DNA from: Nitrospirales bacterium
GTDB lineage: Bacteria > Nitrospirota > Nitrospiria > Nitrospirales > UBA8639
Direction: 5' to 3'
DNA: 64,000 nucleotides
Assembly: GCA_965217975.1 (NCBI GenBank)
Contig: OZ244578.1
Span: 597,690 to 661,689, forward strand
This document shows positions 57,033-61,691 of the stretch, piece after piece (position 1 is the first letter of the stretch; each line of letters begins with the position of its first letter). The notes beneath the pieces are model-generated. The model was not told the DNA's origin and ran no database searches. It saw only the letters and a list, made by a program, of their open reading frames with translations. Both the position numbers and the translations under genes were made by a program.

Positions 57033-59720
57033 ATGCGTGGCAACGTCATCCCACTCTCGCTCAAAATGGCCTGGCGCGAAACGCGAGGCAGTTGGCGTCG
57101 GTTTGTCTTCTTTGTGGCGTGTCTGGCCATTGGCGTTGGAGCCGTGGTGGGCATTGAATTGTTTGCGGCAACCGTGGAAGGCGTGATCCTGAAGGACGCC
57201 AGAAGTTTATTAGGCGGCGACGTCGAGATTCGGTCGGCGCGGGAATTGGGAGAAGACGGGCAAACAGTTCTGGCCTCGTTGAACGCACGACACATGGCCA
57301 TGACCCACGTGTGGGAACTCGTCGGCATGGCTGCGGCGGCGCGGGCGCGCACCTTCAACGATGGCGGACCGGAACGGCTCGCGTCTCGAACCACCCAGTT
57401 GGTGGAACTCAAAGCGGTGGAATCGAACTATCCTCTCTACGGCCGGGTTGGCGTGTCGCCCGACCAGCCGTTGCACACCTTGCTCTCCCCTGTTTCGTCG
57501 TGTCCCGACGCGCCTGTTCCCGTGCCCTGTTTTGGGCTTGTGGTCCAGGAGTCGCTGCTGATCGTCCTGGGCCTGGACATGGGGGCACACCTCAAAATCG
57601 GGCAAGCCTGGTTTGAGGTCAGGGGCGTGCTGCAGAAAGAGCCTGACCGGATGGCCAGCGCGTTCAGTCTGGGCCCGCGCGTCATGATGTCCCGAGACGC
57701 GCTGGTTGCCACCGATCTGGTGCAAGTGGGCAGCCGAGTGCGTCATCGGTATCTCCTTCGCGTCCCGGAGTCCCTCGCGCTTGAGCCGCTCCTGGGGGAG
57801 TTGAGAGGACGGTTGGTCAATGAGGGAGCCGGCGTCTCGTCCTTTCGGACTGCCCAACCTCGCATTCGCGGATTTTTAGATCAATTCACCATCTATCTGG
57901 GGTTGATTGCGCTCGCCGCCTTGTTCGTGGGCGGCATTGGCATTGCCTGCACGATTCACGGATTCATCGCGCACAAGCTGACGACAGTGGCGATCCTCAA
58001 AACCCTGGGAGCGGACGCCGGACTGATCATGCGGGTGTACATGGGCCAGAGTGGGCTTATGGGATGCGTGGGGAGTCTGATAGGGGTGATCGTGGGTATG
58101 GGGTTACAGCTTGGGCTGTCTCTCGGACTGAGCGGCATGCTGCCTGTTGCGGACAGCGCGACCGTGACGGTGATGCCGTTGGTCAAAGGGCTTCTCCTTG
58201 GTATGGGGACGACGCTGTGCTTCACGCTGTGGCCCTTGCTCACGATTCGAACCATTCCCCCGGCGCTTGTCTTCCGGCGGGAAGTGGAGCCAGTCGCCAT
58301 GCCGGCTCACGGACAACCCTTTTGGCAACACGTTGGGCGGTCGCTCATGCGTGTCTGTCAAGACCGTCACCGGTGCCTCACGGGCGCCGTCATTGGCGCG
58401 GGACTGCTGTTGCTTGCCGTGTGGCAGGCCCGCTCCGTGTCTTTGGGGGCGGTGTTTCTTCTGGCTTTTGGCGCGGCGTTAGTCTTGCTGCGGGCGGGTG
58501 TGTGGCTCCTCCTGCACATGGTGCGAAGGGTGCCTCGGTCTCGATCCTTTGTCGTTCGGCACGCGCTTGGCCGGGTTCAACGACCGGGACATTACACCGT
58601 GGGCATGACCGTCGCCATCGGCGTCGGCGTGATGGTCATTACGACGGTGGCGTTCGTCAAGGTGTCGATGCTGTCGGCGATTGGTGATCGTCTTCCCGAC
58701 GATGCGCCGACGTTCTTCTTTGTTGACATTCAGCCGGATCAAAAACAGCAGTTTGAACACATCATGCGCACGCACATGCGAACCGGAACGTATGACATGA
58801 CGCCGGTGGTTCGCTCACGACTCGGATCGCTCAATGGCACGTCCGTCAATCCGGAGGACCACGCGGGCCGGCGCAATGGATGGTATTTCACGCGGGAGTA
58901 CGTGTTGACCGCGTCAGCCGATCTTCCCAAAGACAATACGATTGTCAAGGGATCATGGTGGTCTCACCCTCGTCGCGACACGGGTCGGCGTCATGCACGC
59001 GGTGCGGCGGCCGGCGTATCGGTGGAAGAAGAGGCCGCGCGCAATCTCGGCCTGGACGTGGGTTCCACTGTCGAGTTTGACGTGCAGGGCGTGCTGTTGT
59101 CGGCGGTCGTCGAGAATATACGGAAGGTGGATTGGGGGAGTTTTTCCACGAACTTTTATATGATGCTCTCGCCGGCCGCGTTGGACGGGGCGCCGCTGAC
59201 GTATCTCTCGCCGGCCAGGGTCAGCCCGGAAGAAGCCATGCCCCTGCAACAAGCCCTGGTCCGGGCGCTGCCGAACGTCACGGCCATTCCGATCGGCGAC
59301 GTGCTCGCGAACGTGGCGCGGCTACTGGAACAATTAGCGCGGGTGATTCAGGGCATCGCGCTGTTCAACATCTTCAGCGGTGCGGTGGTGATGATGGCGG
59401 CCTTGTCTTCGACGCGGTACCGACGGTTGTACGAATTCGCCGTTCTCAAAGTCATGGGATGCACGCGACGGGCGATGGTGCAGTCGTTCGCGATAGAATG
59501 TGCTGTGGTCGGCACACTGGCGGGTCTCATCGGAGTCGGTCTTGCCAGCGCGCTCTCCTGGGCCATCCTGTACTTTTTTCTGGACCTGCCCTGGGTGTGG
59601 CAACCCGTCGTGATGATTCAGGGACTTGCCGCCACGGTGGGACTGGCCGTGGTGGTCGGCTTCTTCAGCGCGTATCGCATCCTGGGCCAGTCGCCGTTGG
59701 CCGTATTGCGGCAGGAATGA
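57033..59720 (+). CDS. ABC transporter permease with two FtsX-like domains (YbbP-like)
   Basis: 895-aa protein with about 10 TM segments and two large periplasmic loops. Starts 8 nt after the ATPase stop. Confidence 0.85.
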   Translation: MRGNVIPLSLKMAWRETRGSWRRFVFFVACLAIGVGAVVGIELFAATVEGVILKDARSLLGGDVEIRSARELGEDGQTVLASLNARHMAMTHVWELVGMAAAARARTFNDGGPERLASRTTQLVELKAVESNYPLYGRVGVSPDQPLHTLLSPVSSCPDAPVPVPCFGLVVQESLLIVLGLDMGAHLKIGQAWFEVRGVLQKEPDRMASAFSLGPRVMMSRDALVATDLVQVGSRVRHRYLLRVPESLALEPLLGELRGRLVNEGAGVSSFRTAQPRIRGFLDQFTIYLGLIALAALFVGGIGIACTIHGFIAHKLTTVAILKTLGADAGLIMRVYMGQSGLMGCVGSLIGVIVGMGLQLGLSLGLSGMLPVADSATVTVMPLVKGLLLGMGTTLCFTLWPLLTIRTIPPALVFRREVEPVAMPAHGQPFWQHVGRSLMRVCQDRHRCLTGAVIGAGLLLLAVWQARSVSLGAVFLLAFGAALVLLRAGVWLLLHMVRRVPRSRSFVVRHALGRVQRPGHYTVGMTVAIGVGVMVITTVAFVKVSMLSAIGDRLPDDAPTFFFVDIQPDQKQQFEHIMRTHMRTGTYDMTPVVRSRLGSLNGTSVNPEDHAGRRNGWYFTREYVLTASADLPKDNTIVKGSWWSHPRRDTGRRHARGAAAGVSVEEEAARNLGLDVGSTVEFDVQGVLLSAVVENIRKVDWGSFSTNFYMMLSPAALDGAPLTYLSPARVSPEEAMPLQQALVRALPNVTAIPIGDVLANVARLLEQLARVIQGIALFNIFSGAVVMMAALSSTRYRRLYEFAVLKVMGCTRRAMVQSFAIECAVVGTLAGLIGVGLASALSWAILYFFLDLPWVWQPVVMIQGLAATVGLAVVVGFFSAYRILGQSPLAVLRQE

Positions 59721-59728
59721 CTGATTTT

Positions 59729-60163
59729 TTAAGTTCTTTGAAGTTCTCTTAAGGCTCTCGTAATAGACCGTAGATCTTTTTCTGCAATATCTTGACACTT
59801 TAAAATGCAATGAATCAGCGCTCTTTTGTTCACGTCTTTTAAATCAGCCACATGTTCAGCTTGTCCACCAAAGTGGTCTCGTAATAGTTGCCTCGCCTCA
59901 AACTCATAGAGTTCATCAAATTGCACCCATGTATCTTTATCAAACCAATCATCTTCCTCTAAAAATACAAAGTAATTTCTTTGAGGAGCGGAGCAACCTT
60001 GCTTTTTTACTCTGTAAGGTGCTTCCCTGGAAGTGGTTTTACAAACGAGATAATTGTCTTCTTTGGTTGGAGAGTTGACCACAATAAAGAGTTTTATTCC
60101 TGTTGCTCCATCAGAAAATTTAAATTGCTTATGTAAGTAGATAGCCCCAATCTTCACAGTCAT
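59729..60163 (-). CDS. Putative toxin partnered with a Panacea-domain antitoxin (unassigned family; N terminus faintly PemK/MazF-like)
   Basis: The ATG directly abuts the TAA of the upstream DUF4065 gene (TAAATG). Low GC. N terminus IGAIYLHKQFKFSDGATGIKLFIVVNSP...YLVCKTTS, then a helical tail. Confidence 0.6.
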   Translation of the reverse strand: MTVKIGAIYLHKQFKFSDGATGIKLFIVVNSPTKEDNYLVCKTTSREAPYRVKKQGCSAPQRNYFVFLEEDDWFDKDTWVQFDELYEFEARQLLRDHFGGQAEHVADLKDVNKRALIHCILKCQDIAEKDLRSITRALRELQRT

Positions 60164-60736
60164 TTAGCCGAACATTTTTTTCATTTCTTTATCTTCCCGG
60201 TCTATCTCTTCGGCTTCTTCCTTTGACTTTGAAACAGATGAATGATCCAAAATATACTCATAAGGTATATACCCTTGCCTCTTGTTTTCTTGTCTGAAAA
60301 CCCTATGCCAGGGACCATCAACATCGTGACTTATGTCCGTCATCGCTCTGGATTGAGTGTTTTGATAAATTTCTATGAGTTGGTTCATTATTTCCGTCTC
60401 TCTTTTCGAAAAAAGACTTTTGTCAAAGGATACCTTTGGAAGAATTCTCATGGCTTTATCATTCGTAAAATCTGCATCAATGGAACTTTGAGGGATAAAA
60501 TTAAAAGAATTTTTTAGCGTATCAGGGTGTTGCATTTCATCGTATAAACTCTTCGGTACCGGCCCCATGGGCCAAGCAAAATACTGTAACCCCGTCACTG
60601 GTCTTCCTGTCTGCTTAAAGTGTTCAAAGTCAAGAAAATAAAGGAGTTTAAACAATTTGAGCTTATAGCAATGCTTGGTTTTCTTAACAAAGAAAGCCAT
60701 GGCATGAATCAACTTATCTTTTTTCCGATCAATCAT
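60164..60736 (-). CDS. Panacea (DUF4065) domain protein, PanA/SocA-like antitoxin
   Basis: [44 protein letters not shown] matches the KLxKLLYF....G.P......A...GPV....Y core of DUF4065. Confidence 0.75.
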
Positions 60737-60814
60737 GATGACGCTCTGTCCTGCGAAATAAGGGCAGCTTTCAACGTAAGTTCAGGAAATGATCGTGGCG
60801 ACGCGGCGATCGTA

Positions 60815-60899
60815 TGGTGCCGAAGCCGGGACTCGAACCCGGATGGGTTGCCCCACACGCCCCTCAAACGTGCGTGTCTACCAATTCCACCACTTCGGC
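60815..60899 (-). tRNA. tRNA-Leu(GAG), CCA encoded, long variable arm
   Basis: Minus strand reads GCCGAAGTGGTGGAATTGGTAGACACGCACGTTTGAGGGGCGTGTGGGGCAACCCATCCGGGTTCGAGTCCCGGCTTCGGCACCA (85 nt). The anticodon loop is TTGAGGG. Confidence 0.9.
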
Positions 60900-60995
60900 T
60901 CGGCGGGAGTATAGGGAGGGGTTCAAACGGTTGTCAATGCACGAACCCTGCGGTACAATTGATGGCAGTACCTGGTGATGGTCTGAAAAATAGCC

Positions 60996-61691
60996 ATGTC
61001 TGATTCCGCCCGTTTCGCATCTTCCGATCCTTCGTCCCAGAGCCCCATCGGCGCGTTTTTTGACGTTGATAATACGCTGATTCCCGGTCAATCCATTGAG
61101 ATTCGATTCGTCCGGTATTTGTGGAAGGTGGGTTTGTTGTCCAATCGTGTGTTGCTCGACAGCGCGCGCTATATGCTCTCCAATATGTTCGCGTTTTCCC
61201 GGAGTCCCTTGCGGGAACGCAAGGTGTATCTGACGGATAAACGCCCGGCGGGCGTCGAACCCCTGGCGAAGTGGTTTGTGCGGTCGGAAATCTGTCCGCG
61301 CCTGTCTTTCAAGGCCACGGCGGCTCTGGCGCAGCACCAGCAAGCCGGCCATCGGGTGGCGCTGGTCAGCGGCACTCCGGAATTTCTGATCAAACCCCTC
61401 GCGCATTTCCTGGGTGTGTCGCACGTGCTGGCGGCACAGTTGGAAACCCATGATGATGGCTATACGTGTCGGGTCCTGATGCCCTATCCGTACGGCGAAG
61501 GCAAGCGGCATTTGCTCCGAATCTTTGCGGGGACTCATGGCGTGGATCTCGCGCAAAGCTACGCCTATGGCGACAGTCCCGGCGACATTCAGGTTCTGGA
61601 ATCCGTGGGCCATCCCCTGGTGGTGAATCCCATTCGCGGCATGACGAGGATTGCGCGGCGGCATCGGTGGCCCATTGCCACCTGGGCCTGA
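60996..61691 (+). CDS. HAD-IB family hydrolase (phosphoserine phosphatase-like)
   Basis: FFDVDNTLI (motif I), LVSGTPEFLIKPLA and AYGDSPGDIQVLE (motif IV). Confidence 0.8.
   Translation: MSDSARFASSDPSSQSPIGAFFDVDNTLIPGQSIEIRFVRYLWKVGLLSNRVLLDSARYMLSNMFAFSRSPLRERKVYLTDKRPAGVEPLAKWFVRSEICPRLSFKATAALAQHQQAGHRVALVSGTPEFLIKPLAHFLGVSHVLAAQLETHDDGYTCRVLMPYPYGEGKRHLLRIFAGTHGVDLAQSYAYGDSPGDIQVLESVGHPLVVNPIRGMTRIARRHRWPIATWA

Follow-up and report, generated by a model that had tools for sequence, protein, structure and literature searches.

The 64,000-nt stretch of Nitrospirales contig OZ244578.1 analysed here (the window) carries an AT-rich islet of about 1 kb between a tRNA-Leu(GAG) gene and a ybbP-like permease gene. 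The islet is probably a foreign toxin-antitoxin module of the PanAT type lodged in a variable hotspot, in which a Panacea-domain antitoxin (PanA) is paired with a putative toxin (PanT) that is likely to be a divergent MazF-like endoribonuclease, as suggested by sequence comparison, a structure model and analogy with characterised systems. The module is genuine and probably functional. Its features are listed below in window coordinates.

59721..60750, strand not applicable: whole extent of the presumably foreign low-GC cassette, from the GC profile and blastn against a related contig (L006)
60164..60736, minus: panA, a 190-aa single-domain Panacea (DUF4065/SocA-like) antitoxin, Pfam PF13274
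59729..60163, minus: panT, a 144-aa putative toxin of an unannotated sequence family, predicted MazF/PemK-type SH3-like barrel
60737..60814, minus: spacer of 78 nt, GC 0.53, from the tRNA CCA end to the panA ATG
60815..60899, minus: tRNA-Leu(GAG), found by ARAGORN and by Rfam (RF00005, 51.1 bits)
60908..60937, minus: tRNA promoter-like site, TTGACA-18-TATACT, 11/12 matches

The GC content in 200-nt windows lies between 0.355 and 0.41 across 59700-60800 and between 0.52 and 0.70 on both sides. At a GC content of 0.372, the 1016-nt stretch 59721-60736 is the only one in the window under 50% GC, with a z score of -6.8 against the remaining 1016-nt windows (mean 0.604, standard deviation 0.034). 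An earlier note on this DNA had estimated by eye a sharp drop to roughly 35–40% between 59720 and about 60740, which agrees with the 37% measured over 59721-60736. The panA and panT genes have a GC content at third codon positions (GC3) of 0.39 and 0.30, respectively, compared with 0.73 in the adjoining ybbP-like gene.

Only two substantial open reading frames (ORFs) are found in the islet, both on the minus strand, 60164..60736 (190 aa) and 59729..60163 (144 aa), with stop and start codons coupled as TAAATG (ggcTAAATGact). The ORF list and the junction sequence thus agree with the earlier description of exactly two minus-strand genes joined in this way, and the DUF4065 core and N-terminal motif of the 144-aa protein quoted in that description occur verbatim in the translations. 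The ybbP-like gene is convergent with panT, its stop codon at 59718-59720 lying 8 nt from that of the toxin gene. At the other end the panA ATG, at 60736, is 78 nt from the tRNA CCA end, which is the distance previously given between the islet and the 3' end of tRNA-Leu(GAG). The cassette begins at the first base past the stop codon of the ybbP-like gene and, on the tRNA side, extends some 14 nt beyond the start codon of panA.

The panAT gene pair and its protein families

PanA matches Pfam PF13274 (SocA_Panacea) over residues 28-144 with E = 1.2e-22 and 81.4 bits (cutoff 25.7) and spans all 113 positions of the model, so that the assignment of the upstream protein to DUF4065, for which a profile search had been proposed as the check, was upheld over the full length of the domain. 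The NCBIfam model for the type VI antitoxin SocA (SocA_antitoxin, NF047745) reaches 48.9 bits on residues 22-181 (E = 5.6e-13), compared with an equivalog cutoff of 190. Because the PF13274 match is complete but the score is far under the SocA cutoff, PanA is regarded as a Panacea protein and not as a SocA orthologue. PHROG 1281, whose function is unassigned, also matches PanA (E = 3e-26). Over its whole length PanA can be aligned with the PanA proteins that accompany nine other family members, it has no additional N-terminal domain, and its C-terminal tail (residues 160-190) is acidic, with a net charge of about -4.

The earlier note could name no family for the 144-aa protein, and searches of Pfam, NCBIfam, PADLOC and PHROGs likewise returned no match to PanT at E <= 1, whilst a sequence search of the PDB gave nothing meaningful. 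A word-indexed search recovered 11 relatives at 60–72% identity, all of them nameless and without a Pfam domain. An exhaustive hidden Markov model (HMM) search with the alignment of those relatives extended the family to 561 representatives at E <= 1e-3, of which 265 reach E <= 1e-10, each representative being a cluster at 50% identity and members being about 130–155 aa in length. Nearly all family members are metagenomic; the four that derive from NCBI, every one labelled hypothetical, are WP_208855627.1 from Rhodopseudomonas palustris, WP_349015928.1 from Mesorhizobium, and proteins of an Omnitrophota and a Bdellovibrionales metagenome-assembled genome (MAG).

Across very divergent hosts panA and panT are obligate neighbours that diverge together. 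A PF13274 gene lies directly upstream of the PanT family member and on the same strand in 12/12 informative contexts. At one extreme the two genes overlap by 26 nt and at the other they are 388 nt apart, and in 10 contexts the spacing stays below 80 nt. The contexts inspected were loci L001-L006 and L009-L013, a JGI contig and L017, and one further context ended at a contig edge. Bdellovibrionales, Nitrospirales, R. palustris and Mesorhizobium are among the hosts, and toxin identity to the window falls from 72% to 26% across these contexts. The PanA partners are homologous to one another and diverge in step with the toxins (35–76% identity for PanA, 26–72% for the toxin). Conservation of the two genes as neighbours had been named in advance as a point on which the proposed pairing could fail, and the pairing held in every informative context.

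The genes around the pair differ from locus to locus, with an abundance of defence or mobile-element functions near some of the pairs. L002, L004 and L012 have type I and type IIG restriction-modification genes, DUF4365 and a PLD-SNF2 helicase nearby, L001 has transposases and L017 has MqsRA. At L002 a 9-nt tandem repeat without mismatches (four copies of TATCTAACC, 5579-5614) was also observed about 150 nt past the stop codon of the toxin gene, placed between the toxin gene and the DUF4365/type I restriction-modification defence cluster.

Two further observations link the toxin to DUF6471 (PF20075). In R. palustris BisB18 (CP000301), the toxin gene overlaps at its 3' end with a small gene of this family (L009, 4461-4673), and the metagenomic protein P0198 joins the first 58 residues of the toxin to a DUF6471 domain. 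These cases suggest that the alphaproteobacterial branch has a recurrent third gene or a deletion-fusion.

Predicted fold and candidate activity of PanT

The AlphaFold2 model of PanT built on 143 sequences has a mean predicted local distance difference test score (pLDDT) of 97 and a predicted template modelling score (pTM) of 0.90. The predicted chain forms a six-stranded barrel (strands 7-15, 21-28, 38-44, 64-67, 78-88 and 102-107) with a helix at 90-98, followed by two C-terminal helices at 110-121 and 128-143, and on this model PanT has an SH3-like barrel of the MazF/CcdB type. When the model was compared with the PDB using Foldseek, ranks 1-19 were all MazF, EndoA (YdcE), MoxT or MazF-mt chains, with E-values from 2.3e-4, probabilities of 0.99-1.0 and target-normalised template modelling (TM) scores of 0.50-0.65. 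The type III toxin CptN followed at rank 20 (E 0.015). A shallower model on 9 sequences (pLDDT 74.5) gave the same outcome against the PDB, and in the viral structure library BFVD the top matches were PemK/MazF toxins. The "faint PemK/MazF-like beta pattern" that the earlier note had seen in the N terminus is therefore right at the level of the fold, with Foldseek probabilities to MazF, EndoA, MoxT and PemK reaching 1.0.

A candidate active site was sought by aligning the PanT family with hhalign to a profile of five MazF, EndoA, Kid and ChpBK sequences, which itself recovers the corresponding PDB entries at E ~1e-49. In the resulting colinear but weak alignment (E = 0.005), K24 falls on the MazF catalytic arginine (R29 in EcMazF and R25 in BsMazF) and T44 on the catalytic threonine (T52 and T48, respectively). 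In the PanT model K24 is at the start of strand 2 and T44 at the end of strand 3. Both are among the most conserved columns of the family, and the window PanT keeps all six of the residues listed here with their conservation among 150 diverse family members.

K24: 148/150
T44: 150/150
S45: 143/150
C57: 148/150
T78: 147/150
C119: 149/150

C57 lies in a barrel loop and C119 in the first C-terminal helix of the model, and canonical MazF has no counterpart of either. The two cysteines might form a disulfide, bind a metal or pack in the core.

On the MazF-like reading, PanT would cut RNA and thereby arrest translation, with K24 and T44, in the positions of the MazF arginine and threonine, as the putative catalytic pair. 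PanA may neutralise PanT through direct binding, as in type II systems, a mode that is proposed because it has been reported for stand-alone Panacea antitoxins (Ernits et al., 2023; PMC10440598), and its conserved acidic C-terminal tail may help in this. Under stress or phage infection the toxin would be set free and growth would stop. The pair would be transcribed by read-through from the promoter of the upstream tRNA gene.

Several results weigh against this reading. Membership of PanT in the PemK_toxin family (PF02452) was not found by sequence, since a Pfam scan of 143 family members gave a marginal PemK_toxin match in 1 only (E = 0.0068), and an hmmsearch of the PDB with the family profile did not recover MazF. 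The hhalign probability is only 7%, and the mapping of K24 and T44 draws on that weak alignment together with matching secondary-structure positions. A lysine stands in place of the MazF catalytic arginine, and lysine is not known to support MazF-type catalysis. CcdB, a gyrase poison of the same fold, also matches the PanT model, first at rank 23. Neither PanA nor PanT matched any PADLOC-DB v2 model at E <= 1, the lack of a DNA-binding domain in PanA leaves autoregulation unaccounted for, and the evidence for read-through consists only of missing consensus matches to promoters and terminators.

It is conceivable, if unlikely, that the module is a PanAT whose toxin barrel poisons a target other than RNA. 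That target might be DNA gyrase, which is poisoned by CcdB, or the replication clamp DnaN, which is the target of SocB, the toxin paired with SocA. CcdB structures have the lowest root-mean-square deviation to the PanT model (3.9-4.1 Å) and target-normalised TM scores of 0.62-0.67, and the closest NCBIfam model of PanA is SocA. The substitution of lysine for the catalytic arginine is also compatible with a different target, as are the extra conserved helix and the near-invariant C57/C119 pair, both lacking in MazF. The Foldseek E-values, however, are about two orders of magnitude better for the MazF-family RNases than for CcdB (E 0.05-0.09). The gyrase-binding site of CcdB is its C-terminal helix, and the most conserved residues of the PanT family align instead with MazF catalytic positions. 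PanA, furthermore, is far under the SocA cutoff, and two validated PanT toxins that are predicted to be MazF-like block translation and not replication (PMC8832971).

The way in which PanA restrains the toxin may also differ from direct binding, in that PanA could be a type VI-like proteolytic adaptor which, like SocA, hands a stable but toxic PanT to ClpXP instead of sequestering it in a type II complex. This is considered very unlikely. The top NCBIfam match of PanA is indeed the type VI SocA model, and PanA has neither a DNA-binding domain nor a recognisable disordered neutralising domain save for the short acidic tail. The score against that model nevertheless falls far short of the equivalog cutoff, type II modules typically have the antitoxin gene first and closely coupled to the toxin gene, as here, and the PanA antitoxins described so far in the literature cited bind their toxins in complexes, with a stand-alone Panacea domain neutralising directly (PMC8832971; PMC10440598).

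A pairing of PanA with a MazF-fold PanT that finds no match in domain databases is already a described and validated kind of system (Kurata et al., 2022, PNAS; PMC8832971). That study found PemK-type toxins and toxins recognised as MazF-like by HHpred only among the PanA partners (clusters pT5, with WP_116809181.1, and pT6, with WP_083201923.1). The toxins of Pseudomonas moraviensis (PanT(Pse. mor.), pT6) and Bifidobacterium ruminantium (PanT(Bif. rum.)) lack a CDD hit but show HHpred similarity to EndoA/PemK/MazF, and both were toxic, neutralised by PanA and specific in their inhibition of protein synthesis (PMC8832971). The islet resembles these systems in its gene order, a single-domain ('noNTD') Panacea antitoxin being followed immediately by a tightly coupled toxin, and in a toxin without a CDD or Pfam hit that is nonetheless predicted to be EndoA/PemK/MazF-like. 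Recognition of the islet as a PanAT-type module is accordingly sustained by the Panacea identity of PanA, the predicted MazF fold of its partner and the conserved pairing. The suggestion that the toxin may be a new family stands for sequence annotation but not for the type of system, since PanA with MazF-fold toxins lacking CDD hits has already been validated (PMC8832971).

The PanT family is probably separate from, or much more divergent than, pT5 and pT6, as far as can be judged from accessions, taxa and reported scores rather than from sequences. Whilst pT5 reaches 99.5% HHpred probability to EndoA (PMC8832971), the islet family attains only E = 0.005 in hhalign. WP_208855627.1 and WP_349015928.1, the sole RefSeq members found for the family, do not appear in the examined portion of Dataset S1 of that study. 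Profile searches of an index of 5.8 billion proteins returned no protein from the pT6 taxa, and the PanT profile search at E <= 1 gave nothing between 3e-8 and 1 and nothing from those taxa.

When compared with MazF, PemK, Kid and EndoA (PF02452), PanT shares the predicted fold and the strand order, and in the weak hhalign alignment a conserved basic residue and an invariant threonine fall on the catalytic pair, but it differs in having lysine for the catalytic arginine, a length of 144 aa compared with ~110, an additional C-terminal helix and a conserved cysteine pair. Its partner is also a Panacea protein and not a MazE/PemI antitoxin of the AbrB or ribbon-helix-helix type. With the type VI SocAB system of Caulobacter, the module has in common an antitoxin with a Panacea/DUF4065 domain; unlike SocAB, it does not reach the SocA equivalog score, its toxin has no NCBIfam match and a predicted MazF fold, and the closest functional analogues of PanT inhibit translation.

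The established picture of PanAT systems is unchanged by these findings. They add another predicted MazF-fold partner to the "hyperpromiscuous antitoxin" network of Panacea, from the poorly studied Nitrospirales, Bdellovibrionales and Omnitrophota, and provide a predicted fold and a testable candidate active site (K24, T44) for a family that comprises at least 561 clusters but has no Pfam or NCBIfam model. A bolder and rather doubtful proposal is that the 144-aa family forms a distinct, undescribed MazF-fold clade obligately associated with single-domain PanA, with a Lys-Thr site, the C57/C119 pair, an extra C-terminal helix and a target or specificity unlike that of canonical MazF. In this proposal the cassette would be adapted to insert, promoterless, no more than about 20 nt from the CCA end of tRNA or transfer-messenger RNA (tmRNA) genes, so that its expression would depend on how the upstream stable RNA is transcribed and processed at its 3' end.

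The tRNA-Leu hotspot and the history of the cassette

The history of the site was approached through related Nitrospirales contigs. L006, a contig of a Nitrospirales MAG (JAHRAQ010000007), is syntenic with the window, and there too the pair follows a tRNA-Leu(GAG) gene, identical in sequence to that of the window. In blastn the flanks align at 75–79% identity and the islet at 80%, the islet block spanning 60750..59737 and the flank blocks ending at 59721 and 60814. Synonymous (dS) and relative non-synonymous (dN/dS) divergence between the window and L006 is as follows.

panA: dS 0.69, dN/dS 0.20
panT: dS 0.90, dN/dS 0.16
ybbP-like gene: dS 0.72, dN/dS 0.28

Both panA and panT are under purifying selection. 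Given the synteny, a dS of the islet like that of the flanks and the low dN/dS, the cassette was already present in the common ancestor of the window and L006 genomes and has been kept by purifying selection since.

L014 and L015, related Nitrospirales metagenome contigs found with the 3' half of the tRNA, share the tRNA-side flank at 77–80% identity, and L014 also the ybbP-like side at 69%, yet PanAT is absent from both. Comparison of the tRNA-Leu locus with related contigs that lack the islet, as the earlier note had recommended, thus revealed other cargo there. In these two contigs (L014 5049-5263 and L015 7063-7275, minus strand), about 190 nt after tRNA-Leu(GAG) are followed by a 23-nt direct repeat of the tRNA 3' end (TTCGAGTCCCcGGCTTCGGCACCA), placing the duplicate about 215 nt downstream of the tRNA. 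This repeat looks like an attachment (att)-type scar of an integrative element. The possibility that the 190-nt segment of L014 is a known RNA was discarded, as Rfam finds no family there. Further cargo at the site in L014 and L015 consists of two lipoprotein-like genes, and in L014 a VapC(PIN)-VapB(AbrB/MazE-type) pair adjoins the ybbP-like gene (6354-6979, minus strand). L006 carries a VapB 85% identical to that of L014 (3908-4126, minus strand), with a lipoprotein-like ORF in the place of VapC, leaving an orphan VapB, and the window has neither VapB nor VapC at the site. Since related contigs carry VapBC, an orphan VapB or PanAT there, the site is a variable hotspot with turnover of toxin-antitoxin cargo, so that module turnover can be followed genome by genome at a single tRNA-linked locus.

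No vehicle for the cassette was detected. The islet contains the two toxin-antitoxin genes only and no integrase gene, and none is found in the L006 islet. The 23-nt 3' end of the tRNA occurs as a single copy in the window, with up to 3 mismatches allowed, and has no duplicate in L006 either. No direct repeat flanks the islet, and the short repeat families returned by a repeat search are chance-level matches inside coding sequence. An integrase-mobilised tRNA genomic island was rejected as a classification, there being neither an integrase nor a bounding repeat of the tRNA 3' end. Searches of 72,556 plasmids and 50,697 phage records by tblastn with the window toxin and two proteobacterial family members (P0191 and P0193) were empty, and a pattern scan of IMG/VR viral contigs gave no match to the PanT family. 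The islet resembles tRNA-linked genomic islands in its position at a tRNA 3' end, deviant GC content, patchy presence and the tRNA-end duplicate in related contigs, but differs from them in its size of ~1 kb, in lacking an integrase and flanking repeat, and in having been inherited vertically since before the split of the window and L006.

The pair has a lower GC content than its flanks in 9/9 loci checked. Cassette GC3 in the window and L006 (2422-3441) is 0.30-0.44, which is partly raised relative to the 0.19-0.25 seen in low-GC hosts, whereas that of the host is 0.73. The earlier suggestion of horizontal acquisition is therefore retained on the strength of the GC anomaly, the absence of the pair from L014 and L015 and the low GC in all nine loci, but the acquisition was not recent and carries no integrase or att signature, and the route by which PanAT reached the site is not recoverable from sequence. 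The apparently foreign cassette has stayed AT-rich in a genome of 60–66% GC over a synonymous divergence of about 0.8; amelioration has been much slower than synonymous substitution of 0.7-0.9 would suggest.

It is highly improbable that panAT is a functionless leftover of a genomic island that decayed at a tRNA integration site. In favour of that view, the window lacks an integrase and any att-type copy of the tRNA 3' end, the search for a promoter belonging to the pair itself found none, and the VapBC of a related contig has been lost in the window, whilst L006 has only an orphan VapB left. Against it, both ORFs are intact with all family-invariant residues present, their stop and start codons are still tightly coupled, and dN/dS of 0.16-0.20 at dS 0.7-0.9 indicates constraint as strong as that on the ybbP-like gene (0.28).

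Transcription of the cassette

The sole same-strand promoter-like site upstream of panAT is that of the tRNA, TTGACA-18-TATACT (60937..60908). The coding strand of the 78-nt spacer has no promoter-like and no terminator-like site, its RNA structure is not significant (folding z = 0.47), and Rfam sees only the tRNA. The last ~14 nt of the spacer (GACAGAGCGTCATC), which include a weak ribosome-binding site, are the only part of it in common with the L006 islet. Because the spacer has neither a promoter-like nor a terminator-like site, panAT is probably read through from the tRNA promoter, and co-transcription of panAT with the upstream stable RNA is the simplest reading of the sequence.

A comparable arrangement is seen elsewhere. 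In L006 (2320-2424) the panA ATG is 17 nt past the CCA end of tRNA-Leu, and in L002, from an unrelated host (4048-4422), panA starts 21 nt past the CCA end of a tmRNA, with the PanA as called being 13 codons short. In both, the only promoter found upstream of panA is that of the stable RNA. L002 and L006 are two independent examples in which the cassette abuts a stable-RNA gene and leaves no room for a promoter.

On the opposite strand of the window, a second promoter-like site, TTGTCA-17-TACAAT (60931-60959, plus strand), faces a HAD-type hydrolase gene at 60996 and overlaps the minus-strand tRNA promoter. The two overlapping, back-to-back promoter-like sites (60931-60959 on the plus strand and 60908-60937 on the minus strand), both of them strong, make up a compact divergent promoter region.

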